This document shows positions 3,243 through 47,783 of a stretch of 64,000 bases of DNA, piece by piece. The notes under the pieces are model-generated. The model worked only from the letters and a program-made list of their open reading frames with translations, ran no database searches and was not told the DNA's origin. Made by a program: the position numbers and the translations under genes. The stretch lies in NCBI GenBank assembly GCA_000004985.1, contig GG738848.1. One strand, 5' to 3'. The stretch is from Naegleria gruberi (lineage: Eukaryota). Each line of letters starts with the position of its first letter. The stretch's first letter is position 1.

Positions 3243-4794
3243 CACAGCAAAACAAGCAACAACACTTTCATTGTAAATAACAAATCTATAAATAAAGCAA
3301 AAAACTTGTCAAAAAAAATATCTCTACATCACCAACCGAATTATTGTTATACATAACGTCATTATTCAGTTAGTTTTTAGTATGATTTTACTCTTGATGA
3401 TAGCACCATTATTGTTTATAATTGGAAAGTATCTGAATTATAATATATTATTTATTGAATCAATAGAATTATTGAATATTGGATTTGTAATACATTATTC
3501 AAACTATATAATTTAATCGCTATCTTTGTTATTTTGGACCAAACCAGAAAAATAGAATTTGATTAATTCAGTCCATCCCAAATCTTTGAAATTGTGTCCT
3601 TGTGCTTCGAGTTCTTTAAGATTTGATTTTAAATTAACAAGAAAGGTTCTTTTTGTAAGCATTTATTAATTTTAAATATATTCCCATCTAAATCGTAGAA
3701 TGTACTGTTTACATTCTAATAAGTAGAGGAAACAACTTAGCTTGTTCTTGAAATTGTTCTTCTCAAGTTGTTTTATGTAAGAATTTATTTATTCAAACCA
3801 TTTTAACTTTCATACTCTTCATAATTTAATTTACAATGTAACAATTTCCTATTCTAAGAATTATTAATTGAAATATTAGAACTGCAACAAATAACTTTCA
3901 TATTTGTTAAATTACAAACTGAGATTGAAAATTGGAACTTTCTGAAACAGTTGAATACAAGATTGAGTTGTTGGTTCTTTTCACATTGTTTGGTTGGAAA
4001 TTATATCAACTCAGTGGTTCCATGTATACATTATTCCAACATGAATCTGCTTCTGATTTGGATGCTTTGTTATAGTTCTTAAATTGGGTGTTGGTGTTTA
4101 TCTTGCCAGCATTTTCTACCACTAGATATTGATTCCCAACCAGCAATATTCACCATTGAGTTGAAATTATATGTAAGTTTTCGTCTAATGGAATTGGTTG
4201 ATCCAATTTAATGATTGCTAATTGTTTTAATATAGAACTCGAGATGTATCATCTACCAATGAATTTCCAGCCATCAGTTGTCCAGACCAATTGTTGAAAT
4301 AATTCCACTACTATTTGAAATGAATCTACTTCAATGATTATTATCATTCAAGTCAATAGTGATACCATTGGGAGCATTTAATTTGGAAGTATTAGCCTAA
4401 ACACTCACACCTGCTCCAATAACTAGTTGAAATGATACCACTAGTTGAAACCTTTGTGATAGAATAATTTTGGATGAAGACATCACTTCAACTATTTAAA
4501 GCAACAATTAGGAGGAAATCACCATCATCTAATTATTTAACTGATTGTGAGTTCACTATCCAATTATTCAACTGTATTGGAGTTTATTGAATTTATTTGG
4601 AGTTTAAGGTACGTTTAAAGAATTGTAATTTTTCATATTTATAACTGGTTATCAATATATCAATACTCATAGCTTATCAATTTTAAGGATTTGTGGATTG
4701 GATTAATTGAAAGTGGTGAAATCACTGAATTTTATGAGGATGATGATTATGATAAATTGATTGGACTTGTGGATATGATTGCTTGGATAAAGTG

Positions 4795-5060
4795 ATGTGA
4801 ATAATTAATATTAATTATTAACGAGTAATGATAATAATTTAATATTAATTATTAATATTAATTATTGGCGAATTAGCATTAATAATTAATATTAATTAAT
4901 GACGTTAAAATAACGCATTAAAAGTCGATTTTCTCACGAACAAGGTTTAACGTTTTTATTAACGACTTTTCATTAATTATTAATAAAATTGACTTGATTG
5001 AATGTTAATATTTGTCATTAAAAATTAATAAAAATCATTAGCAATTAATGTAAAAACAAT
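4795..5060. repeat. AT-rich low-complexity tract rich in palindromes, built from TTAATATTAATTATTAA-like units with short inverted repeats (AAAAGTCG / CGACTTTT).
   Basis: Direct reading shows repeated attaatattaattattaa motifs and local inverted repeats inside a roughly 2-kb gene-free interval (3300-5300). Confidence 0.6.
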
Positions 5061-5515
5061 TTAGCGGGATCGCTAACACCCAAATTGAGAATAGGTATTG
5101 AAAGAACAGTTGCTAGGAATGACAATGTCGTAAGTCAAAATTGTTAAGGAAGATTTCTATATTGATAAGTTATCAAAATTGTAACATGTTAATTGGATTT
5201 GGATTCAATCAATATTACAATACAAATATATTGAAACGATAAATTTGAATCTTTTATCTCCATAATTGGGATTCAAATTACTCAATCTTTGCAAAATAAA
5301 TAGAGTGCAATAAGGAATTTAGGATCGTCCTGTGGAAAACTTGTAAATTCTTCTGTAGTTTCTTCTAACAGTTCTGGTTTCAATTGAATTAATTTGTCAA
5401 CATGATCGGAGAGCTTGACATTCTCATCAAGCATTATTGACTCGTACAATACTTTCTTAACAAGAGGGTTTTCTCCACGTTGCGCAAATTGGGCAAGTAC
5501 ATTGGAAACAGTTGT

Positions 5516-7249
5516 CTAGTTGAAAATATTCTGGATGAAACGTTTCTTGCAAAATTCAATAAACTCAACTGGATCAGGCACTGAGTAAATATGGAGAAGA
5601 ATAGTAGTAGTCTCCTCTGTGAATATGTTCGGATGATTCTGACCAAGTCTCTCCAAATCAATTGGTTCATCTCCAAATAATGTTTCAAATTCTCCCTTAA
5701 TCTCATCAAAAAAGTAGTGAGAAAAACTTTTCACAAGATCTTTAAAGAATAAATTTCTATCATCCAATTCATAAATGTTGTGTTCAAAGTTATCGAGCAT
5801 GTATCTAATAATTCCAGAGGATTGTTTCGAATAGTACCATATATCACATTTCGGTAGTTGCTCAATGTGAGCTTGAGGGAATTTGTATCCCTTTCGTCTT
5901 GTATAAATGAGGAAGGTAACAATATTTGTAAAAGCATGATATGAGAGAAAGTTAACAATGGAAAATTTCTCATATGGAATAGGATAGGAATCAAGAAACT
6001 TGGATAAATACTCTTCACCTTCAGTGGTCAATTTAGAAATAAATCCCAAATAATTGGATTTTTCAATCATGGTTGAAATAATTTGTTCCTTAGTTTGAAA
6101 ATTTTCCAAAAATTTCAAATACTCAATTGAAATCTTGATGCGTGTTTCGTTATCATAATTATGCTTTTCCAAATAGAATACATCCAAAAAGAAAGTATCT
6201 GAAATGGTATCTTTTGAATCAATTTGATACTTGATGCATAATTCTAAAATCAAATCAAAACTACTCTCGTAATAATCAAAATTGCAGAAGATGGTTGAAA
6301 TCCAGCAAAGTTTGACATTCATATTAAACGAATCAAAGAGTTTTTTCAATGTAGTCTCTAGATATTCCTTTCTTATAAGATATGGAAAGGTTTCTAACGA
6401 GATTTCTATCATTACTTCCCAATATTTTGAATAGATAGTGTTTGATTTTAAAAGATTTGTGAAGATAGTATTCTGAATCTCCTCCTGTTCACTTGGTAAT
6501 TGTTTCAAATTATAAATAATCATTTGATTTTGGAGATTATTTCCCATCAATACAGAAACAAAGCTCATTACAGTTTCTTCCTTATAATTCTTCAAGAAAT
6601 AACTCATCGATGAGAAATAGGATGTCATTGTAATGGATCCTATTGAAATAATTTGTTTTTCCATCAAGTGTTTGAATCGATTTCCAATCAGTGATGAATT
6701 ATTTGAATTTCCTAAATCACTTTCACTTCTATTCAATGAAATTCTCAATGCTGTTTTATCCTTCAACACATGAAGATCGTATGAGGTAATAGTAGAATGT
6801 AAAATAGCTTTAGCCAACACGAAGGGTGGCTCATTCTTTTGTCCTGTTGTGGATTTCAATGAACGGAGAGCTTGCAAAATAGGTTGAATCTTCTTCATGT
6901 CCCTCTCGGAGGAAAGAAGTGCTTCCTTGACTTGTATTTCTGTTAAAGTTGTCTTGACATTAAATTTAACCATTTTGTTAAACTTTTCAATGATGGTGAA
7001 AACGAGATAGTGTTGAAATAGTGTCTTCCAGAAAAATTCGTACTTGTCCAGAGAATGCCAATCTTTGCAAACACAAAGAACAGCTCCCACATCACGAATT
7101 GGTAAGTATTCCGTCACACAAAAGACATTATCTAACGACAGTTGACTCATTTTTTTGTAACACTCTATTGTATCCAGTACTCCTCCTTGTTGACAGTACT
7201 TTCGAGTATGCACACTATAAGCTTTTAATGAGTTAAGCTGGTCTATCAC
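5516..7249 (-). CDS. F-box domain protein (577 aa). The ORF continues in frame for another 78 codons past its TAG stop, down to 5282.
   Basis: N-terminal F-box-like motif LSLDNVFCVTEYLPIRDVGAVLCVCKDWHSL. Immediately after the TAG at 5516-5518 the same frame stays open to a TGA at about 5282, encoding non-repetitive protein-like sequence (TTVSNVLAQFAQRGENPLVKKVLYESIMLDENVKLSDHVDKLIQLKPELLEE...). Confidence 0.6.
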   Translation of the reverse strand: MIDQLNSLKAYSVHTRKYCQQGGVLDTIECYKKMSQLSLDNVFCVTEYLPIRDVGAVLCVCKDWHSLDKYEFFWKTLFQHYLVFTIIEKFNKMVKFNVKTTLTEIQVKEALLSSERDMKKIQPILQALRSLKSTTGQKNEPPFVLAKAILHSTITSYDLHVLKDKTALRISLNRSESDLGNSNNSSLIGNRFKHLMEKQIISIGSITMTSYFSSMSYFLKNYKEETVMSFVSVLMGNNLQNQMIIYNLKQLPSEQEEIQNTIFTNLLKSNTIYSKYWEVMIEISLETFPYLIRKEYLETTLKKLFDSFNMNVKLCWISTIFCNFDYYESSFDLILELCIKYQIDSKDTISDTFFLDVFYLEKHNYDNETRIKISIEYLKFLENFQTKEQIISTMIEKSNYLGFISKLTTEGEEYLSKFLDSYPIPYEKFSIVNFLSYHAFTNIVTFLIYTRRKGYKFPQAHIEQLPKCDIWYYSKQSSGIIRYMLDNFEHNIYELDDRNLFFKDLVKSFSHYFFDEIKGEFETLFGDEPIDLERLGQNHPNIFTEETTTILLHIYSVPDPVEFIEFCKKRFIQNIFN

Positions 7250-36378: not shown

Positions 36379-38280
36379 TTAAACTTTATAGAGAACTTCC
36401 TTAATGTCAACATGTTGATGTTGTTTACAATTATCGTATAGTGTTTTGAAAATCTTGTGTTTCTCAATTGCAATATCGAAATTCTTCTTTTGAGCTCGAC
36501 TGATTGCTTCCTTCAGTCCAGTATCAATCATGGTTGCAAATTTCTTCCTGGCCATATCCCATCCAATACTTGTGGCCATAATTCCACTCAGATTAATCAT
36601 TCTAAAATCAATATATCTCGTACTATTATTATCAATCTTTTGTAATAACCTAGCTCCAATCATTGGCAATCTTGTTCTAGAATCTCCACTATCGTATGAT
36701 TTCATCAATAGGAGACATTCTGTTATTTCACCACCAACGAATGATGCCTGACTTGAGAGTACCATGTCGAGGGCTCGTTTAGGGAATAAAGAAATCTCAA
36801 AATCTGATGAAAGAGTGGCAATTGAATATTTCTGTTGTGAGCTAGTCATGTTAATGGGCTCACTCTGGTTGAAGGTCACATTCTTCAACACTGACGATAA
36901 GTGATCATCAGTGTGTAGTGCCTTGACACATTCCTCCAGAGAATTCTCCAATTTACCAACCATTTTAAAAGTCTTTGATTCCAAATGTCCAACTGTATAA
37001 TCTGCCTTTGTGGACCATTGCATTAATTTTCCTCGATTCTTAATAGTTGGATACCAATCTGGAGAAAATTCCTTAGTGAGATAATTAATGGCCTTCCAAT
37101 CTGAATCAATTACAAATTTTACACTCAAATCCTCGGCTGAGAATCGATGGTCCTTCTCTGCATGCTTGAATAAATCTCTCTTCTTTAACAGAATGTGAAG
37201 GGCAGAGGAGGGCAATTTCTTTGGTTCCAGATTCGTCTTGATCCACTTGTTAATGAATTTTTCTTCATCCACCTGGAAAATATTAAACCAATCCTCCAAA
37301 TCATGCAAAAACATTTGAATAATGATTTGAATCTCATCCAACATTCCAATACCAATCAATTTATCATTTGGATCAGTATGGAGTGGAATTTCAATGTTTT
37401 TCGAATAGCATTCGTGTTGTTTCTTTAAAAAACTTTCCAATCTTTCATGTGAAAACAATTTTGCAGTTCTATTCTTTAAATGCATGATTAAACTTGTCAG
37501 GAAATGGAAAGGATTGCCTTCTCCTCCAGTATTTATACTAATTTCTATATTACTTGTAGGAATTTCCAATTCTAACAATAAATCTCTGCAAAATTCATCA
37601 ATCATTTCCATTACCACTTGTCGTGATGTGACAGTTGACTTGATTTTCAATGAACTTGCATCCATAAACTTGATAAGAAACAACACCTTAGCTCTAGCTT
37701 CTAGTTCATACTCAAAACTTTGCAAATATTTGAAAAATTGTTCTCGCATTTCTTCTAACGGAGGTAAATGTTTGAATTCTCCATAAGATTTTGAAGATTT
37801 TGAAGATTTTGTTGATTTTGTTGATTTTGCTGTGGAACTTCCATGGGAATGTGCTGAATTAGTTGATAAATTATCATCGGGAAGGTATTGGTCGTGATGG
37901 TTGTGATGGTGTCCATCAGAAAGTGCACTGGTTGACAATGGACTCGAGCTGATGGGATGATGGTTGGCAGTTCTGTCAAAATCATCGACTCCTTCAATAT
38001 TTATCTTGATTTGCTCTTCACTACTAGTAGAAAATGTAAAATCTGCATGTAAACTATAGGATTTAAAGTGTGAGCCTTGTCCATTCGAATAGGAGCCATC
38101 AAATAAACTAGACGAAACAGGAGAAGTTGACAAGAATGAAGTAGACGAAACCGGAGAACTTCCACCTGCAAAATGTGATGGAGAAAGACCCCTCGGTGAA
38201 TGTTGTGAACCATTCAAAGATGACAATCCTTTGTGTGAATCCACAACCGCTAGAAAATTGACAGGTAATTGTACTGACAT
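36379..38280 (-). CDS. Hypothetical protein (633 aa) with a Ser-rich N-terminal region and a C-terminal START-like lipid-binding domain (tentative).
   Basis: The C-terminal 200 aa (SDWKAINYLTKEFSPDW...FPKRALDMVLSSQASFVGGEI...RLPMIGARLLQKIDNNSTRYIDFRMINLSGIM) follow the START-domain pattern (..RDFV..R......G........R.....S....G). His-rich tract HHHNHHDQ. Confidence 0.4.
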   Translation of the reverse strand: MSVQLPVNFLAVVDSHKGLSSLNGSQHSPRGLSPSHFAGGSSPVSSTSFLSTSPVSSSLFDGSYSNGQGSHFKSYSLHADFTFSTSSEEQIKINIEGVDDFDRTANHHPISSSPLSTSALSDGHHHNHHDQYLPDDNLSTNSAHSHGSSTAKSTKSTKSSKSSKSYGEFKHLPPLEEMREQFFKYLQSFEYELEARAKVLFLIKFMDASSLKIKSTVTSRQVVMEMIDEFCRDLLLELEIPTSNIEISINTGGEGNPFHFLTSLIMHLKNRTAKLFSHERLESFLKKQHECYSKNIEIPLHTDPNDKLIGIGMLDEIQIIIQMFLHDLEDWFNIFQVDEEKFINKWIKTNLEPKKLPSSALHILLKKRDLFKHAEKDHRFSAEDLSVKFVIDSDWKAINYLTKEFSPDWYPTIKNRGKLMQWSTKADYTVGHLESKTFKMVGKLENSLEECVKALHTDDHLSSVLKNVTFNQSEPINMTSSQQKYSIATLSSDFEISLFPKRALDMVLSSQASFVGGEITECLLLMKSYDSGDSRTRLPMIGARLLQKIDNNSTRYIDFRMINLSGIMATSIGWDMARKKFATMIDTGLKEAISRAQKKNFDIAIEKHKIFKTLYDNCKQHQHVDIKEVLYKV

Positions 38281-38803
38281 TTTTTTTTGAATAATTACTG
38301 ACAGTTATTCAACGGAAACAACCCAAAATGCAAGTAAATAACAAGGGCAATCCTTCAGTTTTGTAATTTCTTCAAATTTCGTTTTCAAACTAGGAAGAAT
38401 TGGTTTCCAAAATGTTTACAAATTTTTTGAGAATCGTTGCCATAAAAAATTTTAACAAAAATCTGAAAAATTTTGTTGTTTATCAATTAATTTTAGTATT
38501 AATTGCACTCGCGTGAGAAGATGATTCACTCAATCGATATTATTATTAAGGTGCAATTCTTACAGAGATCTTTAGTTTGTTTTTATGTTTATGTTTCGTT
38601 TCAATGAAGATGGAATGACTGGAACAATCTTTGAATTGTGGAACAAGTTACTTTGATTTCGAATATTAGACAGTTCAGTAAGTGGTGTGCCTTAGATTTT
38701 TGTCTGTGATTCATGAACTTGGTTTCAAAGTTATGTCAACGTCAAGTGTCTAATCAAAAAAAATACTTCAGTTGCTCCTTCATAATATTCATAATAAAAA
38801 AAC

Positions 38804-39158
38804 ATGGGCAATAAACTCATCATATCCCAGTCGGGTTCGTTCTCTCTGGATTCATCTACTTCATCTCTGCAAGCTTTCTATCAACAACCACTTGGCCGAA
38901 ACTTGAGACGAAACTCGACCGAAATACAAGCATCTCCTTCATCTCCAACAAAAAGAACGTCATCAAAGGGACCACTCAGTGCTGGATCAACATCCCTGAA
39001 TGATGTAGTATTCGAAAGATCTTCCTCACCAACTACAAACCCTCAGGATTATAACATTTTATTAGACGAAAGTTCAGAACCTGTAAAGAAGAGAATGAAC
39101 GTCATCATGTTAGGAACAGGAGGAAGTGCCAAAACCACAGTTTTAAAACAATTCAAAT
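38804..39158 (+). CDS. Heterotrimeric G-protein alpha subunit (divergent), exon 1, with an N-terminal MGxxxS myristoylation-type start and a Ser-rich extension of about 95 aa.
   Basis: MGNKLIISQ...KRMNVIMLGTGGSAKTTVLKQFK contains the G1 / P-loop box (GAGESGKST-like). Donor T|GTAAGT. Confidence 0.7.
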
Positions 39159-39288
39159 GTAAGTATTATTCCTTTTCTTTACAAGGTAATAATTTAAATT
39201 ATTTTACAAAATATTTAACATGTTTAATATAATTATAATATATTTAAAAAAATATTTACAAACAAAAAATCAATATCATTGAAAATAG

Positions 39289-39765
39289 TATTGGGAGGTA
39301 AAAGAGAAGATCTTACACAATCACTCTGGCAAGAAGGAATTGTCGTTCCATGTTTCGATTTGTTGATTGCCATTTTCAATCGAAAGAATTTCTATTATCC
39401 AAATGCAGAATATCATCACGAAGAATCTGATGAAGTTGAACAGCAAGTATTCGATCTGTTCGATCAAAAGAAGATTCTCAACATTATTCATCCGAATAAT
39501 CAGAAATTGATTGAGGAAATTGCTGAAATGTGGAACAATGAACCAATTTTGAGAAAGGTCTGTACGGAAATGCTTTTGGAAAATCAAGTGGAATCGGTTC
39601 CGGTTGAGGATGTGAATTATTATTTTTCCAGAGCTGTTGCAGTTCATCGGGGAGATAAACCATCGGATAAGGATTTGTTAATTTCACAAAGAAAGACAAC
39701 TGGTGTTACACATGTTGAATTTGCATTTAATAATGGTTCTACTTTGGTTAATATTTGGGATTGTG
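39289..39765 (+). CDS. G-protein alpha subunit, exon 2 (helical-domain region and switch I), after a 130-nt intron (39159..39288).
   Basis: Contains RKTTGVTHVEF (switch I, RxxTxGI-like) and ends WDCG|GTAAGT. Confidence 0.65.
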
Positions 39766-39832
39766 GTAAGTGAAATCATATTTTTGATTGTAAAATGTGA
39801 AATTTTGTGTAAATTTATGAATAATAATATAG

Positions 39833-40422
39833 GTGGTCAGAAAAATGAAAGAAAGAAGTGGAAATACATGTTTACCGAATCTCAAAAGTTAACAGGAAAG
39901 ATCTTTGTCATTTATTTCGTAGCTCTTTCAGAATATAATCAATTGTGCTACGAAGACGAAACCACCAACCGAACTCACGAATCTTTGAAAATTTTCGAGA
40001 GTGTTGCCAATAATCCAGAGTATGAGAATTATCCTCTCTTCCTCATCTTTACAAAGAAGGACATTTTCAAACAAAAATTGAGATATACCAGTTTATCTGT
40101 CTGTTTTGAAGATTGTCCAGAAGATTTGAAAGCTAACGAAGACACTACCAAGATAAAGAGAGATATCATTAACAATTGGACTGGATTTTTAGAGGATAGA
40201 CAATGTGTCTCTGATGAAATTTATGAAAAATCATTTGATTTTGTCAAGAGAAAATTTATGGAGCGAATTTCCAATGCCGATCGCAGAAAACAAACTGAAA
40301 AGAATATCAAGGTTGTGAATGCAATGGATGCTGATGATGTGAGAAGTAATCTTGTTGAAGAATTATTGGAACAAACAATGGTGGAAGAAATATATAAGGA
40401 TGATTTGGTTCATTATCTTTAA
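39833..40422 (+). CDS. G-protein alpha subunit, exon 3 (switch II to C-terminus), after a 67-nt intron (39766..39832).
   Basis: The splice restores the G3 box DCGGQKNERKKWKYMF (DVGGQRSERKKWIHCF consensus). Then FLIFTKKDIF (NKxD-like FLNKKD) and NAMDAD (TCATDT position). Stop TAA at 40420-40422. Confidence 0.75.
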
Positions 40423-40426
40423 AATT

Positions 40427-40448
40427 CTCGTCATTCAATAAAAGTTAA
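40427..40448. repeat. Target-site duplication, copy 1 (ctcgtcattcaataaaagttaa).
   Basis: An identical 22-mer sits at 41620..41641. The sequences diverge immediately outside both copies. Confidence 0.75.
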
Positions 40449-41619
40449 ATTGTAATATTTATTAACGTCTCTTGTATCGTAAAGACCTGAGAGACGAGGT
40501 CTACAACCAGTAAGTTTCGGTTCAGCGTTTAAGTGTTATGGGTTGACGCTAAGTGGTTGGTTAGACTGAGCCTGCCTGTGGTAGGCAGAGAGGTATTTCC
40601 TGTTAATAGTGAAGCTTGCATTGGGACGGTTGTACCACACTGAGTTCTTGTAGCAATTTTCCAAATAAATAGCTAGTGCTTTGTAGACTTCTAGGGCCAC
40701 ATTCTTAGGTATTCTTTTGCGCTTAGACCAGTTAAGCCAGTCATTACGGGAGCAACGACCATCAAATTCTATCCTAAGTTGAGAGGATTCTGAGATATCA
40801 GGAGGGAAACGAATCTTGTTAAGGCTAAATTTCTGGGAGATAGCGTCCCATGTGGCATACAGTTCATCCTTTTCAGGATTGCATTTGGGACAAGTTTGGA
40901 ATACGTGGGTCCAATCTTCCTTGACATTACATTTGTCACAAATACTGTCGTTACCTAGTAAAATTGAGTGGTGGAGATTAAAGTAGAGGAGTCTTTGCTG
41001 ATAATAAGACAAGAGAGAGTTTCTCCAGAAGGAGAGAGTGCTATTATGCCAATTATAGTCATTGTCTAATTGGCCCAACTTATTAATAATTTTCTTGGAT
41101 CGCTGAGTTTCAATGATAGCATTTCTAAGGTTGGAGACAGGCTTGTGATTGGTACGGTTACACAAGACCCATCCATTATCTGTGGATTTGAAGTAATATT
41201 TCAGATCTTTCATTGTAGCGGCAGCATTTTTCCACAGTGAATCTGTAGTTTCACCCTTGAGCGCCTTATTTATCATGGCTCTTGCGATTTTGGGTGATAG
41301 GAGAGGTAGAATTGACAAACCTACAGACAGATGCCATCCTTTCCACGTGACTTATATCAACTGGAGATGAAAGTCCAAGTCCACCCTGGGATTTATCACC
41401 ATATATAACGGCTTTAGAGAGCCTGTTGTCACATCCAATTCTTTTCTTAATAATTCCACTAATTTTGACTTCCAATTTTTCCAATAGTGAAAGTGGAATA
41501 GCATCTACGCTTGAGAGGTATCTAGGTACAGAAAGCACCTTAGATAATATTACGTTCCTCATTGGACCGAAACAACTTTTAAGAGAACCTTATCATCGGA
41601 GGGAGACCAAGACATGTTA
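40449..41619 (-). mobile_element. 5'-truncated non-LTR (LINE) retrotransposon fragment (1171 bp) on the minus strand, holding the C-terminal part of ORF2 (RT thumb / zf-RVT region) in two frames. It is GC-richer than the flanks and has no poly(A) tail.
   Basis: ORF 41266..41562 (...AVIYGDKSQGGLGLSSPVDISHVERMASV...) and ORF 40536..41318 (...CDKCNVKEDWTHVFQTCPKC...) match the conserved ...GGLG... and CxxC..E.W.H.F..C zinc-binding motifs downstream of LINE RT domains. The fragment is flanked by a perfect 22-bp direct duplication. Confidence 0.75.
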
Positions 41620-41641
41620 CTCGTCATTCAATAAAAGTTAA
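41620..41641. repeat. Target-site duplication, copy 2 (ctcgtcattcaataaaagttaa).
   Basis: Identical to 40427..40448. It brackets the 1171-bp LINE fragment. Confidence 0.75.
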
Positions 41642-42051
41642 TATTTCTCAGAGCTGCAAGACTTGTTGTGCTGTTTATTTAAAAATCTCAATTTTTCCCT
41701 AATGACGGCATTTACCCCTGAACGGCAAAAAACAACCAACCTGAGCAAAAAAAAAATGAATTTAGGTCCTACTTTGACACAAATCATCTACCACATTTCA
41801 TCAGAATCACACAGCTAAACAACAGGGTTGGTGTTTTTCATAAATTGTACCCTGTATTTAACTATTAAGTTTTATTAAATTCGGGAGTTGATTTTTCGAA
41901 AAAAGAATAGAGGGCGGCTACTTTTGAAAAACAACTACCTCATTCCGAAAAACAACAGACCACCAAAATTCAATTCCTAAATGGCTAACACACCATAGCA
42001 CACAAATTTGGTTTATTCAATTTTTAGAATTGTCACACTCATCACACCAAT

Positions 42052-42282
42052 TTACAAGTCACAAACACTATTCAACTTCAATTCGACTCTTCTCTTTTTC
42101 CAAGCTGAACTCAAATAGTCTTTGATCTTGTCCTTGATTTCACTGAAGAGACACCCATTTTGAAAAGTCAAGCAAATATCCTCTACCAACTGAATGTCAA
42201 GGTGTTCTCCTTCATTGATTTTATCTGAAATAACAACCTCTTCAAATCTAATCTTGGCTCCAACACCATCTACAGAAAGCAC
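42052..42282 (-). CDS. Small ORF (76 aa) of unknown function, possibly the last exon of an unresolved gene.
   Basis: Protein-like, non-repetitive translation (...EDICLTFQNGCLFSEIKDKIKDYLSSAW...). No canonical ATG; the track start is a non-ATG codon. Confidence 0.2.
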   Translation of the reverse strand: MLSVDGVGAKIRFEEVVISDKINEGEHLDIQLVEDICLTFQNGCLFSEIKDKIKDYLSSAWKKRRVELKLNSVCDL

Positions 42283-43445
42283 TTTTATTGGGAAAGAAGA
42301 ATTTCTAAATTAAGAAGTCTATCATTTATGAAACATTAAAAATGAATCAACAAGACGTTAAGAAGAAAAACATTCAATACACAAAAACATACAGAGAACG
42401 AAAACGTATCAAGAAGGTTGTAAAAGAGACTATGAAGATATTAGCAAAAATGTAACAAAGGAACAATTATTAACTGGAAATTTGAAATTGGAAATAGATG
42501 AATCAAATTTGAAATCTGGACAACAAGAAGTAATTTTTCATGAGCAAGTGAGTTTCAGTTTTGGAGAATTGGGAGGATTTGATTTAAATGACAATAGTAG
42601 TAGTATTGTTGACGAATCAACAATGTATAAGGGGTAGGCGGTGAATGTTGTTACAGCAATAACAATTATTCTCTTTATTATTGTATTTTGCGAGATTGCA
42701 ACATCAAAGATTGGATTGTTATTGAAATTATTAGGAGAATTGCTTTCCAAAGATCATTTATTATGTAAAACTAAAGATGCTCTGTTGAAATATGTGCTCA
42801 ACTTTGGCAAAATGGCAAAGGTATTTAATTCTACGACTAATCGATAAGAATCATGTAAGTATTTAAATTAATTAATTTATTGATATCTTTAGGATTTCCG
42901 TATTAATACATCCCTTTCAGATTTGGTGGTCAAGACTGTTTCAGGGAACATTGCTAGTGTCAAATCAATGGATTTTTCACTTAAATCAATCTCAATATGC
43001 TTTTACTAGCAGTGGAAAGTAAGTGGTTTCATGGCTAAATTGCAACTAATATTTTAGAAGTGTAATAATCACAAGTTTTATTGAGAAGAACAATACTGTA
43101 TTTGCTATTTTGGATAATTATGTGGATGGGAAATTTACTCACACTTTCACGGAGCCAATTACTAACCTCAAAGACCTCACATTTTCATTTGTTGATTCAT
43201 TTGGTCTTGGTCATTTTTCCAACCATTCCATTCTGCTAAGTTGACTCTTAATAAAAGTTTAGGTTATGATTGTAAAAAATTCAAGTCCTCAATTTATTGC
43301 AAATCAACCCCTCACTTTTTCAAAAAGCCAGGTCTGGATTTGATAAAAACCACTGTTCAGATAGTGGTACCTGATTTTACCCCTCGATTTTTTGCAAACT
43401 ACCACTTATTTCCGTCATTAGGGAATTTTGATATTTTAGAAAAAA

Positions 43446-44672
43446 ATGAGCAAACGAAATAGACAAGATTTTGAAAATTATCATCAATTTATTAATTCGG
43501 AGGAAATATTCACTAACAATTTTAATATTATGGAAGAGAAGGCAAAAAAGAGTGTGAAATTCCAACAAGAAATATTTTCAGATGATGTTTGTTTTGAAAT
43601 AATTTCCATGATTGATGATTCATGGTTTATTTTAAATAATTGTTGTTTAATTTCAAAACAATTCTTTAATGTGATCAAGGAACGTTCAAAACTTGTTATT
43701 CAATTTAACAAAAAATTTACAAAGAAACGAGTTCAATTATTCATGAAAAGTCAATTCATGAATAGTATTGTTAATCTTAAAGTTTCTCGCCGGTTACTTG
43801 ACTCTTTAGAACAACCCAAATTCATAAGTGAAATGAAACAATTAACATCACTTAATATTTCTGACAATCAAATTGGCTTAGAAGGAGCCAAATACATCAG
43901 TGAAATGACACAATTAACATCACTTGATATTAGTGTAAATCGAATTGGTGTTGAAGGAGCTAAATTCATAAGTGAAATGAAACAATTAACATCACTTGAT
44001 ATTAGTGTAAATCGAATTGGTGTTGAAGGAGTTAAATTCATAAGCGAAATGAAACAATTAACATCACTTGATATTTCTGACAATCAAATTGGCTTAGAAG
44101 GATCCAAATACATCAGTGAAATGACACAATTAACATCACTTGATATTAGTGTAAATCGAATTGGTGTTGAAGGAGCTAAATTCATAAGTGAAATGAAACA
44201 ATTAACATCACTTAATATTAGTGTAAATCGAATTGGTGTTGAAGGAGTTAAATTCATAAGTGAAATGAAACAATTAACATCACTTGATATTTCTGACAAT
44301 CAAATTGGCTTAGGAGCCAAATACATAAGTGAAATGACACAATTAACATCACTTGATATTTCTGTAAATCGAATTGGTGATGAAGGAGCTAAATTCATAA
44401 GTGAAATGAAACAATTAACATCACTTGATATTTGTGACAATCAAATTGGTGTTGAAGGAGCCAAATTCATAAGCGAAATGACACAATTAACATCACTTGT
44501 TATTACTAGCAATCGAATTGGTGTTGAAGGAGCTAAATTCATAAGTGAAATGAAACAATTAACATCACTTGATATTTCTGGCAATCGAATTGGTGATGAA
44601 GGAGTTAAATTCATAAGTGAAATGAAACAATTAACATCACTTAATATTAGTGTAAATCGAATTGGTGGATGA
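43446..44672 (+). CDS. F-box-like plus RNI-type LRR protein, intact part (408 aa), paralog of 34999. About 12 near-identical 24-aa LRR units.
   Basis: The N-terminal 100 aa are almost identical to the 34999 gene (MSKRNRQDFENYHQFINSEEIFTNNF...CFEIISMIDDSWFILNNCCLISKQFFNVIKERSKLVIQFNKKFT). The repeats read ISEMKQLTSLDISVNRIGVEGAKF. Confidence 0.7.
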   Translation: MSKRNRQDFENYHQFINSEEIFTNNFNIMEEKAKKSVKFQQEIFSDDVCFEIISMIDDSWFILNNCCLISKQFFNVIKERSKLVIQFNKKFTKKRVQLFMKSQFMNSIVNLKVSRRLLDSLEQPKFISEMKQLTSLNISDNQIGLEGAKYISEMTQLTSLDISVNRIGVEGAKFISEMKQLTSLDISVNRIGVEGVKFISEMKQLTSLDISDNQIGLEGSKYISEMTQLTSLDISVNRIGVEGAKFISEMKQLTSLNISVNRIGVEGVKFISEMKQLTSLDISDNQIGLGAKYISEMTQLTSLDISVNRIGDEGAKFISEMKQLTSLDICDNQIGVEGAKFISEMTQLTSLVITSNRIGVEGAKFISEMKQLTSLDISGNRIGDEGVKFISEMKQLTSLNISVNRIGG

Positions 44673-45140
44673 AGGAGTTAAATTCATAAGTGAAATGAAA
44701 CAATTAACATCACTTAATATTTCTGACAATCAAATTGGCGTAGAAGGAGCCAAATACCTCAGTGAAATGACACAATTAACATCACTTGATATTTCTGACA
44801 ATCAAATTGGCTTAGAAGGAGCCAAATACATAAGTGAAATGAAACAATTAACATCACTTGATATTTCTGCAATCGAATTGGTGATGAAGGAGCTAAATTC
44901 ATAAGCGAAATGAAACAATTAACATCACTTAATATTAGTGTAAATCGAATTGGTGGAGAAGGAGCCAAATACATCAGTGAAATGAAACAATTAACATCAC
45001 TTAATATTATGACAATCGAAATTGGTGACAAGGAGCCAAATACATAAGTGAAATGAAACAATTAACATCACTTCATATTACTAGCAATCAAATTGGCGTA
45101 GAAGGAGCCAAATACATAAGTGAAATGAAACAATTATTGT
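44650..45140 (+). pseudogene. Degenerating 3' continuation of the 43446 LRR gene: about 7 more LRR units interrupted by at least three single-base indels (frameshifts).
   Basis: ggtggatgaagg versus canonical ggtgatgaagg (+1 at about 44668). tctgcaatcg versus tctggcaatcg (-1 at about 44868). A further indel lies near 45005-45030 (aatattatgacaatcgaaattggtgacaaggagcc). The LRR reading frame hops between ORFs 43446, 44662, and later frames. Confidence 0.6.
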
Positions 45141-45671: not shown

Positions 45672-47783
45672 TCAGGGAGGAACCAGAGTTGTTTGAGAAT
45701 GAACACTTGGAAATATAACATGCCACAAATATTTAAAGTCCAAAAAGAGAGTTTTCCAATTTAGAAGCATATTTTGAAATCGAATATTGTTGAGAAAGAC
45801 ATATGAATCCGTTTCACATGCCTCCAAACTGTGTGATATGAAATATTTCAGTAGAGGTGAAATTACGTATCGTGTGAATAGATTTGAAATATTTTGAGGA
45901 CGAAAGACTGCCTCTGCCAAGTAATCCACAAACCAAACATAGGAATAGGTATAGTGAAAGACAAGTTGAAGATTTCTACTAAACGTAAAGTTGAATGTGT
46001 AGGGAAGTGGATGTACGTGCTTTTGTCGATTCTTCTTCTTTTCCAATCGAGAAGCAACCAATGATTCATGCAATGCTAAACAAGATTCACACACCAGTGC
46101 AATTCCTCTTCCATAGTAAGGATTAAGTGAGGCAACAGCATCACCCAGAGCGAGGAATCCCTCTACAATTGATTTCTTACCTCTCTTATTGGTAAGAGAA
46201 GGCAAAGTATCCCAATGATTGAACAAGACATAATCTCTCCTGTAAATACTCCAATCCATAACTGGTGGTTCTCCCTCTCCCACAAACTTGGTAAAACACT
46301 CCTCACATACTTTGAAAGCACTTGGAATTTCTTGCTTGATGAATTGGAGAACTGCATCTTTGGATTTTAGGTTTTTGGCCTTTTCAAATGTTCCCAATTT
46401 ACTGACAATAAACATGGCAAGATTATTTTCAATTCTATAGACCATTACTCGTTCAGTTTTGGGAAATTCATTACTATAGACCGTTAGCCATTGAGGTTTC
46501 TTTTCTCTCATGTAGAAACCCTCAGAGAGACATTCTGGCTTGATCTTGAATATTGCCATTACGTTTGTGATTTGAGACTTCTTTTTGGTTTTCTTCATTG
46601 GTTTGGCACGGTGATCAATTTCTGCCACCTCATTCAAAATCCACTCTGGTGTCTTGGTATAAACACCACTGCAATCAATGACCAAGCTGGCATCAAGTGT
46701 GCTTGTCTTTCCATCTATTGAAGGATGTCCACCTATGGCATCAAACTTGTTCTCTCCACTAATCTGTACTCCTACAGCTCTGTGAACGATATTTCCCAAA
46801 TATGTGGGTGAATTAGATTGTTGTTGAGAGCTCGAACTCGATGTATCTGAAATGGTATTATGATCTGGAATTTCACTATACGTTGCAGAGAAAATCTTCT
46901 TGGTAATACTGTCATATGAACTAAAGTGTTCCTCATGATATCGTTCCCAGAGAATATCCTTCACCTCTGTCTTTTCCAATACTATAATATTTTTCAAGTT
47001 TTTTACATAATCTCTGAGCCAACTTTCCAAAAAGGTCCTCGACATCATAATCATGTTGGGAAAGTTCAATAAATTAAGTGGTACTCTCGGTTTACCATTT
47101 GTTCTATAATCAGCCATATCAATACTCAATTCAAAGGCACCTTCTTCGACCATACTCTCAGTGAATGATTTTTCATTCTTGGTCAATAACTTGTCTAACA
47201 ATTGGATACATTTCATCAATAGGATATGAGTCTGATGTCCGTGAGCCACCATCGTATGCCCAGGAACCATCTCCTTCTGTTCCACAATATAAACCTGATC
47301 AAAGTGATGTGAGAGAACACACCCAGACAACAACCCAGATATAGAACCACCAATAATTACACAACTTTTACCAGCTTTGGGTATGTGCTTCTTTTCCAAT
47401 TGTTCAATTTCCTTCTCCAATGTCAAATCAGAGTGTTGCTTAATCTCCAAGAATGGAACTATAAACTTTTTAAATAACTTTACAATAATCGCCTTTAAAA
47501 TAAATACTAGAATAAAAATAAATAAATAATACACCAATAAGTCAATACTATTACAAGATATATTTGAGGATTTGCAAAAATCTTCCTTCCAATCCCTCAC
47601 TCGATCCTTATAAATCACAGTTTGATTCATCACCAAATGTGTCCAATTCTTTAAAGTTTCCCAATCATTCCGATGTTGTTGTTGATGATTCGTATGTTTT
47701 ATCTGATGTTGATTATGATGACTATTCATCACTGATGATGATGATGCCTGTGATGATGGATTACTCCTCAAACTTCCCGTCAT
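45672..47783 (-). CDS. FAD-dependent oxidoreductase / monooxygenase-like protein (703 aa) with an N-terminal His/Gln-rich region and a TM segment.
   Basis: Dinucleotide-binding motif KSCVIIGGSISGLLSGCVL...VYIVEQ (GxGxxG) and a downstream LGDAVASLNPYYGRGIA motif (GDAAh..P..G.G type of FAD hydroxylases / geranylgeranyl-reductase family). Confidence 0.6.
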   Translation of the reverse strand: MTGSLRSNPSSQASSSSVMNSHHNQHQIKHTNHQQQHRNDWETLKNWTHLVMNQTVIYKDRVRDWKEDFCKSSNISCNSIDLLVYYLFIFILVFILKAIIVKLFKKFIVPFLEIKQHSDLTLEKEIEQLEKKHIPKAGKSCVIIGGSISGLLSGCVLSHHFDQVYIVEQKEMVPGHTMVAHGHQTHILLMKCIQLLDKLLTKNEKSFTESMVEEGAFELSIDMADYRTNGKPRVPLNLLNFPNMIMMSRTFLESWLRDYVKNLKNIIVLEKTEVKDILWERYHEEHFSSYDSITKKIFSATYSEIPDHNTISDTSSSSSQQQSNSPTYLGNIVHRAVGVQISGENKFDAIGGHPSIDGKTSTLDASLVIDCSGVYTKTPEWILNEVAEIDHRAKPMKKTKKKSQITNVMAIFKIKPECLSEGFYMREKKPQWLTVYSNEFPKTERVMVYRIENNLAMFIVSKLGTFEKAKNLKSKDAVLQFIKQEIPSAFKVCEECFTKFVGEGEPPVMDWSIYRRDYVLFNHWDTLPSLTNKRGKKSIVEGFLALGDAVASLNPYYGRGIALVCESCLALHESLVASRLEKKKNRQKHVHPLPYTFNFTFSRNLQLVFHYTYSYVWFVDYLAEAVFRPQNISNLFTRYVISPLLKYFISHSLEACETDSYVFLNNIRFQNMLLNWKTLFLDFKYLWHVIFPSVHSQTTLVPP

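Follow-up and report, generated by a model that had tools for sequence, protein, structure and literature searches.

Among the described groups of LINEs, R2 elements lack an N-terminal apurinic-type endonuclease and insert site-specifically in 28S rDNA, elements of the RTE clade have only one ORF, which extends very little beyond the reverse transcriptase (RT), and Dualen/RandI elements carry both an apurinic-type and a restriction-like endonuclease. For Naegleria, our literature search returned bulk LINE counts only and no description of a family or clade of the kind reported here: 190 LINE fragments were counted in N. lovaniensis (PMC6125883), and only a small fraction of N. gruberi repeats could be classified (PMC12344493).

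We analyzed a window of 64 kb of N. gruberi DNA, the term referring throughout to the whole stretch, and focused on a LINE copy behind a G-alpha gene. The copy belongs to a family that is restricted to the Naegleria lineage and apparently undescribed. In its layout, this family resembles LINEs with a putative apurinic-type endonuclease (APE-type), with an ORF1 followed by an ORF2 that comprises the endonuclease, RT, thumb and a CCHC knuckle. It differs from RTE elements in having a separate 524-aa ORF1, as read from the related metagenome contig L003, and a C-terminal domain of ~260 aa bearing the CCHC knuckle. Unlike R2, its relatives have an APE-like N-terminus, and the insert in the window lies in an ordinary intergenic spacer.

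A perfect duplication brackets the insert

The locus comprises the following main parts.

38804–40422, plus strand: G-alpha gene, N. gruberi XP_002682016.1 (473 aa, 'G(o) subunit alpha'), with exons at 38804–39157, 39288–39767 and 39832–40422
40427–40448: left copy of the target-site duplication, adjoining the 3' end of the element, with AATAAA inside at 40437–40442
40449–41619, minus strand: 5'-truncated LINE copy, about the last fifth of a ~5.2-kb element, the size being estimated from the related contig L003
41620–41641: right copy of the target-site duplication, adjoining the truncated 5' end of the element, with protein homology to other copies from 41618

Over its three exons, XP_002682016.1 aligned to the window with 100%, 99.4% and 100% identity, and PF00503 was matched by the last exon (E = 6e-36) as well as by the full protein (E = 2.9e-60, 204.6 bits versus a cut-off of 48.8). 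The insert behind it is antisense to the G-alpha gene. It spans 1171 bp with a GC content of 0.402, compared to 0.332 for the window and 0.32–0.33 in the 5-kb flanks, in agreement with the distinct, higher-GC segment of this length described in an earlier note on this DNA.

The insert is enclosed by the 22-mer CTCGTCATTCAATAAAAGTTAA, which occurs exactly twice in the 64-kb window, as a perfect match at the two listed positions. None of 100 dinucleotide-preserving shuffles yielded any match to it, a repeat finder recovered the same pair at 100% identity, and the repeat could not be extended on either side by even one base. The 22-mer pair and the enclosed insert are real and far exceed chance level. 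The perfect bracketing duplication claimed earlier was thereby confirmed as exact, unique in the window and absent from the shuffles; the possibility that the 22-mer is a dispersed repeat found no support, with no third copy in the window even when three mismatches were allowed. A repeat search across 38000–44000 detected neither LTRs nor terminal inverted repeats, and the 22-mer was the only terminal repeat. With the 22-mer set in brackets, the target locus reads ...TTAAAATT[CTCGTCATTCAATAAAAGTTAA]TATTTCTC..., and an uninserted allele with a single 22-mer would read ...TTAAAATTCTCGTCATTCAATAAAAGTTAATATTTCTCAGAGC....

Anatomy of the insert

No other pieces of the LINE family were found in the 64-kb window. 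From its 5' to its 3' end, the copy contains the following features.

41574–41618, minus strand: first retained codons, NMSWSPSDDKVLLKV, preceded in intact copies by the RT 'YLG' motif; 5' truncation point
41569–41573, minus strand: internal, frame-shifting deletion of ~37 bp, with five bases in place of the 42 that encode ESRLLNFRPKHLRL in the related protein P0051
41290–41544, minus strand: RT thumb-like segment (SKVLSVPRYL...GGLGL...RFVNSTSPITQ), aligned by the family profile to the R2 thumb (E = 4e-22)
41288–41291, minus strand: second frameshift, at four consecutive A; P0001, P0006 and P0051 are in frame here (ITQKIARAM), consistent with a 2-bp deletion
40539–41287, minus strand: ORF of the C-terminal domain, with 40539–41276 being 100% identical to XP_002682177.1
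40890–40940, minus strand: zinc knuckle CX2CX7HX4C, CDKCNVKEDWTHVFQTC, whose C, C, H and C residues hardly vary across the family alignment
40536–40538, minus strand: stop codon of the element ORF
40449–40535, minus strand: 3' untranslated tail of 87 nt, ending ...GUUAAUAAAUAUUACAAU, with its own AAUAAA at 40458–40463
40466–40501, minus strand: small stem-loops in the 3' tail, including a 5-bp stem noted earlier at 40484–40501

The insert represents a single minus-strand reading frame with two phase changes. Both minus-strand ORFs listed in the earlier note, at 41266–41562 and 40536–41318, are present at these positions, but the frame is broken twice rather than once, as judged against P0051, P0001 and P0006. 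Over 246 residues, the long ORF showed 100% identity to N. gruberi XP_002682177.1 (NAEGRDRAFT_46033), annotated as 'predicted protein'. P0001 was considered as the gene model of the locus and rejected, because no splicing of the window sequence can produce its in-frame 'ITQKIARAM'; P0004 fits.

The limits of the element coincide with those of the duplication. Homology to other N. gruberi copies starts at 41618, one base inside the repeat, and continues to the stop codon. The truncation point was located against P0051, which contains '...EYLGASFINNMSWSPSDDKVLLKVESRLL...' and reads ...EYLGASFINNMSWSPSDDKVLLKVESRLLNFRPKHLRLGPMRNVILSK... across the 5' limit of the insert. In contrast to the truncated 5' side, the complete ORF end and the tail reach 40449, where the tail end ...GTTAATAAATATTACAAT (...TTACAAT) sits directly against the left repeat; the family terminus is read from this single copy. 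Such a coincidence of the limits of homology with the two edges of a perfect duplication is the signature left by target-primed reverse transcription.

Relatives place the insert in a LINE ORF2

Pfam gave no direct match to the ORFs of the insert, and its affiliation was established through relatives. A search of 5.8 billion proteins with the insert returned three matches, all of them Naegleria-like, with 90% clusters containing further N. gruberi proteins, and an exhaustive HMMER pass over 1.84 billion representative proteins identified 41 relatives of the C-terminal domain. Two JGI metagenome scans, using the window ORF and the family alignment, yielded no match. Directly N-terminal to the homologous part, RVT_1 was detected in P0008 (E = 6.5e-28), P0009 (1.8e-37) and P0010 (4.4e-39) and, at the same place, in P0048 and P0049 (E ~1e-33). 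The homologous region of these RVT_1-bearing relatives is 60–77% identical to the window ORF. Matches to Exo_endo_phos or Exo_endo_phos_2 in P0049, P0051 and P0006 were weak (E = 1e-3 to 1e-4, under the curated Pfam cut-offs), and P0049 is collinear with residues 23–870 of human L1 ORF2p (E = 4.5e-17).

The full-length layout was provided by L003, on which the 524-aa ORF1 is followed by an ORF2 of ~1,125 aa, for ~5.2 kb overall; this relative breaks off at a YYQQRLL motif, before the 3' end. ORF1 shows coiled-coil signals, and a possible RRM was seen weakly and in the N. gruberi model P0006 only. After the thumb, family members continue for ~260 aa with the CCHC knuckle, the spacing CX2CX7HX4C being the best-conserved feature of their C-terminal domain.

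Family profiles and predicted structures pointed to R2 and human L1 ORF2p only. The RT of P0049 matched the solved R2 reverse transcriptase with E = 1e-30, and the family profile aligned through the R2 palm, the 'YLG' motif and the thumb, including the thumb-like segment of the window. For the predicted structure of P0048 (pLDDT 80), the best Foldseek matches were R2 (E = 1e-26) and L1 ORF2p (3e-18), while the predicted fold of the C-terminal domain in the window (pLDDT 84) matched only L1 ORF2p and R2. Similarity of the insert ORFs to RT, the lack of which the earlier note had named as grounds for abandoning its reading, was thus found, by way of RVT_1 in the relatives and the R2 profile. Of the two C-terminal features proposed there, an RT thumb and zf-RVT cysteine motifs, the thumb was upheld by the R2 profile alignment. 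The assignment to Pfam zf-RVT was not: PF13966 had no match at E ≤ 1 in the window ORFs or in any of 12 family members, and only the CX2CX7HX4C spacing is present. An hhalign comparison to a plant RT bearing zf-RVT aligned the RT palm and nothing beyond.

On these sequence and modeling grounds, the insert is taken to be the 3' end of a non-LTR retrotransposon on the minus strand. The domain content of the relatives, the structure matches and the full-length layout of L003 identify it as the last fifth of a LINE. For the core of the original proposal, a 5'-truncated minus-strand LINE fragment with a target duplication in the 3' flank of the G-alpha gene, RVT_1 in the relatives, the R2 thumb profile, the fold and the limit of homology all agree.

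A possible R2-like module after the thumb

The predicted structure of the C-terminal domain can be superposed on R2Tg over 141 of its 171 residues. Following the knuckle, PPD-x11-D-x13..19-K is retained in the window copy, a pattern reminiscent of the spacing in the R2 restriction-like endonuclease. Together with the APE-like N-terminus, the R2-like post-thumb fold and this pattern resemble Dualen/RandI. In contrast to Dualen/RandI, the candidate catalytic aspartates after the knuckle are not conserved in the family alignment A4, and the acidic residues that would correspond to an R2-type nuclease are not conserved across the Naegleria family, which sets it apart from R2 as well. An active restriction-like endonuclease in the C-terminus was rejected because the candidate catalytic residues lack conservation.

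A relic of an R2-type nuclease in this domain is unlikely. We give similarly little credence to the wider proposal that the insert stems from a deep-branching, Heterolobosea-restricted LINE pairing an endonuclease of the apurinic type with a post-thumb module resembling that of R2, composed of the knuckle and a degenerate restriction-like nuclease fold in which PPD...D...K is kept in the N. gruberi subfamily, and intermediate between the two great LINE groups as in Dualen/RandI. Consistent with it are the small number of C-terminal relatives (41 in 1.84 billion proteins), an RT that is closer by sequence to R2 than to L1, and the superposition on R2Tg. If true, the deep-branching lineage would be a living intermediate between both great LINE groups.

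The 3' end and comparison to known clades

The 3' end of the element has no A-run or tandem repeat; Tandem Repeats Finder detected nothing in 40300–41800 at score 30, and Rfam had no match in the same interval. The lack of poly(A) stated in the earlier note is correct, as no A is present between ...ACAAT and the repeat. The string described there as a small terminal hairpin, GACCTGAGAGACGAGGTC, does occur at 40484–40501, but it is not significant as a structure: the minimum-energy fold of the tail forms a 7-bp stem instead, pairing CGUCUCU (40490–40496) with AGAGACG (40466–40472), and folding of a 92-nt tail gave z = -1.67, with 15 of 200 shuffles folding as well. The tails of the related loci L001 and L002 could not be aligned with that of the window.

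A 'CR1/RTE-like' 3' end had been suggested from these features. The window element shares with CR1 and RTE the lack of poly(A) and a small stem-loop near the 3' end. It differs from CR1 in having no 3' microsatellite or tandem repeat, and its stem-loop is no better than in shuffled sequence. With no microsatellite, no Rfam LINE 3' element and no significant hairpin, the absence of poly(A) is the one remaining argument for this assignment, which we therefore do not retain.

From L1, the family is separated by a sequence identity of only 15–20%, by an ORF1 in which the possible RRM, with weak Pfam support, precedes the coiled coil and, in the one copy at hand, by the missing poly(A) tail and a nicked site without T's at its end. 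An L1-like, poly(A)-dependent LINE, of which the window copy would merely lack a visible A-tail, is nevertheless compatible with the endonuclease, RT and CCHC parts of ORF2 and with the possible RRM and coiled coil of ORF1. The AAUAAA 9 nt before the element end, from which source transcripts may be polyadenylated, and a plant RT as the best named non-Naegleria sequence match also fit this explanation. We consider it improbable, because no extra A separates ...ACAAT from the repeat, a primer ending in ...GTTAA-3' cannot anneal to poly(A), the perfect state of the duplication argues against enough time for erosion of a tail, and the RT sequence is nearer to R2 than to L1.

A dead copy of a young family

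The window copy has neither ORF1 nor the endonuclease and RT core and carries two frame-breaking deletions, so it is dead and unable to move by itself. It was dead on arrival or soon afterwards. At least four other N. gruberi copies with 96–100% protein identity are located on other scaffolds (scaffolds with such proteins: 196,593, 712,659, 3,081, 351,708 and 461,873 bp), and more divergent subfamilies with ~60% identity (P0003 and P0050) were found on two further ones. The near-identical copies on other scaffolds suggest that the LINE family is young and apparently was recently active. For a very young insertion, it is somewhat unusual that a copy with 100% identity elsewhere carries two indels.

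Other copies are fused into chimeric gene models, among them a 1920-aa EGF-plus-LINE protein and a PB1-plus-LINE protein.

The segment could alternatively be a bona fide host gene, NAEGRDRAFT_46033, that arose by domestication of the C-terminal domain of a LINE. The reference annotation lists it as a protein, and it contains a 260-codon ORF without stops and encodes a domain predicted to fold confidently (pLDDT 84). However, an intact ORF is expected in any young copy, the ORF is the out-of-frame tail of a longer frame with two indels, and the segment is bounded by the target duplication. As the same or nearly the same sequence also recurs on at least four other scaffolds, with two copies fused into plainly chimeric gene models, we regard domestication as highly unlikely.

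Proposed integration mechanism

We conclude that a Naegleria-restricted LINE of the apurinic-endonuclease type was very probably inserted by target-primed reverse transcription in the short spacer behind the G-alpha gene. The geometry is visible at the locus itself; the steps follow from established LINE integration. The cDNA strand would correspond to the plus strand of the window, so the primer would have been the plus strand ending in ...CAATAAAAGTTAA-3'. In this model, the element endonuclease would have nicked the plus strand after ...AAAGTTAA, placing the first nick between ...GTTAA and TATTTC. From the released 3'-OH, cDNA synthesis would have started right at the terminus of the element RNA (...UUACAAU), without copying of an A-tail. 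The 5' truncation would reflect abortion of reverse transcription, or a template switch, shortly past the RT 'YLG' motif. Nicking of the minus strand after ...GACGAG, at a distance of 22 nt from the first nick, and subsequent fill-in would have generated the duplication.

Since the primer end is unable to pair with poly(A) and no A precedes the repeat, reverse transcription appears to have begun at the end of the 3' tail. This one copy suggests that it is the 3' end of the element itself, and not poly(A), that is recognized for priming. An endonuclease-independent arrival, by break capture of LINE cDNA or DNA or by ectopic recombination, in which the 22-mer would not be a staggered-cut duplication, is very improbable: although the 5' truncation and internal deletion of this single copy are compatible with repair-mediated capture, break-capture insertions usually lack target duplications and often come with deleted target DNA, whereas here the 22-bp duplication is perfect, element homology on the 5' side stops no more than 1 nt away from it, a complete ORF end and tail are present at the 3' side, and relatives encode an endonuclease-like N-terminus.

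Consequences for the G-alpha gene

The stop codon of the G-alpha gene is located at 40420–40422, and the repeat begins 4 nt later. The earlier note had correctly assigned the insertion to the 3' flank of this gene, but the distance of ~5 bp given for it does not apply to the insertion itself, as the junction (40448/40449) lies 26 nt after the stop. The insertion has left the coding sequence intact, and the only related G-alpha locus found, a metagenome homologue with 65% identity (L004), ends at the same aligned position; its flanks could not be aligned. Within the left repeat, AATAAA at 40437–40442 starts 15 nt after the stop, with the original distance kept. We did not accept this hexamer as an established poly(A) signal, as AATAAA or ATTAAA within 70 nt after the stop was present in only 9 of 31 long ORFs of the window.

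Because the left repeat keeps AATAAA at this distance, the effect on the 3' end of the G-alpha mRNA is likely small. At most, antisense LINE sequence may now contain the final nucleotides of the 3' UTR or the site of cleavage. The suggestion that the insertion 'probably alters' the 3' UTR and polyadenylation was, with the junction 26 nt away and the AATAAA distance unchanged, an overstatement.

Implications for Naegleria and its LINEs

As a 5'-truncated LINE with a target duplication, the insert is an ordinary textbook object. For the genome of N. gruberi, it means that the reference annotation counts a dead LINE fragment as the protein-coding gene NAEGRDRAFT_46033, and masking of this fragment and of the chimeric models is advisable. 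For the family, the clean insertion offers a first look at its integration geometry, with nicking after ...GTTAA, cuts staggered by 22 nt and no A-tail. Since the C-terminal domain occurs almost exclusively in Naegleria-like organisms, the placement of this family in the LINE phylogeny is worth study.

LINE copies in the N. gruberi annotation

In the N. gruberi reference annotation, LINE fragments have been entered as genes (protein models P0004, P0001, P0005, P0006, P0050 and P0051), and the fragment in the window itself carries the annotated gene NAEGRDRAFT_46033. Other copies have ended up in chimeric models: P0006 (1920 aa) combines an EGF-repeat protein with LINE ORF1, endonuclease and C-terminus, and P0050 fuses a LINE C-terminus to a PB1-domain protein.

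Features at and around the insertion
36379-38280, minus strand, long ORF of 633 aa
40539-41276, minus strand, NAEGRDRAFT_46033, annotated gene on the LINE fragment
43816-45136, plus strand, tandem array of 18.4 72-bp units encoding 24-residue leucine-rich repeats (86% matches)
45672-47783, minus strand, long ORF of 703 aa

LINE relatives on metagenomic and environmental contigs

On the metagenome contig L003, homology of the near full-length relative ends abruptly past the motif YYQQRLLFLNL and gives way to unrelated AT-rich sequence (region 4640-5552); a further element inserted at this point, or a chimeric assembly, could account for the break. The relative on the environmental contig L001, which encodes the RVT_1-bearing protein P0008, is a decayed copy; N-terminal RT motifs lie in frame 5' of the called gene (region 1-600) and are broken by stop codons.

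Genes and intergenic sequence flanking the insertion

The nucleotide-binding motifs of the upstream G-alpha protein (38804-40422, plus strand) diverge from the canonical sequences: its P-loop reads LGTGGSAKTT rather than GAGESGKST, and its guanine-specificity motif TKKD rather than NKxD. The N-terminal ~85 residues are Ser-rich and of low complexity.

Between the insertion and the leucine-rich repeat (LRR) gene, ~1.8 kb (41642-43445) contain no ORF of at least 90 aa on either strand. GC skew is markedly negative at ~41800-42400, possibly the trace of a small minus-strand gene with several exons. Neither of the two long flanking ORFs had a Pfam match at E <= 0.001.

The stop codon of the LRR ORF (43446-44672, plus strand) falls within the tandem array, whose 72-bp repeats continue for ~460 bp beyond it. 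This pattern points to a disrupted reading frame, to an intron or to a gene in decay.
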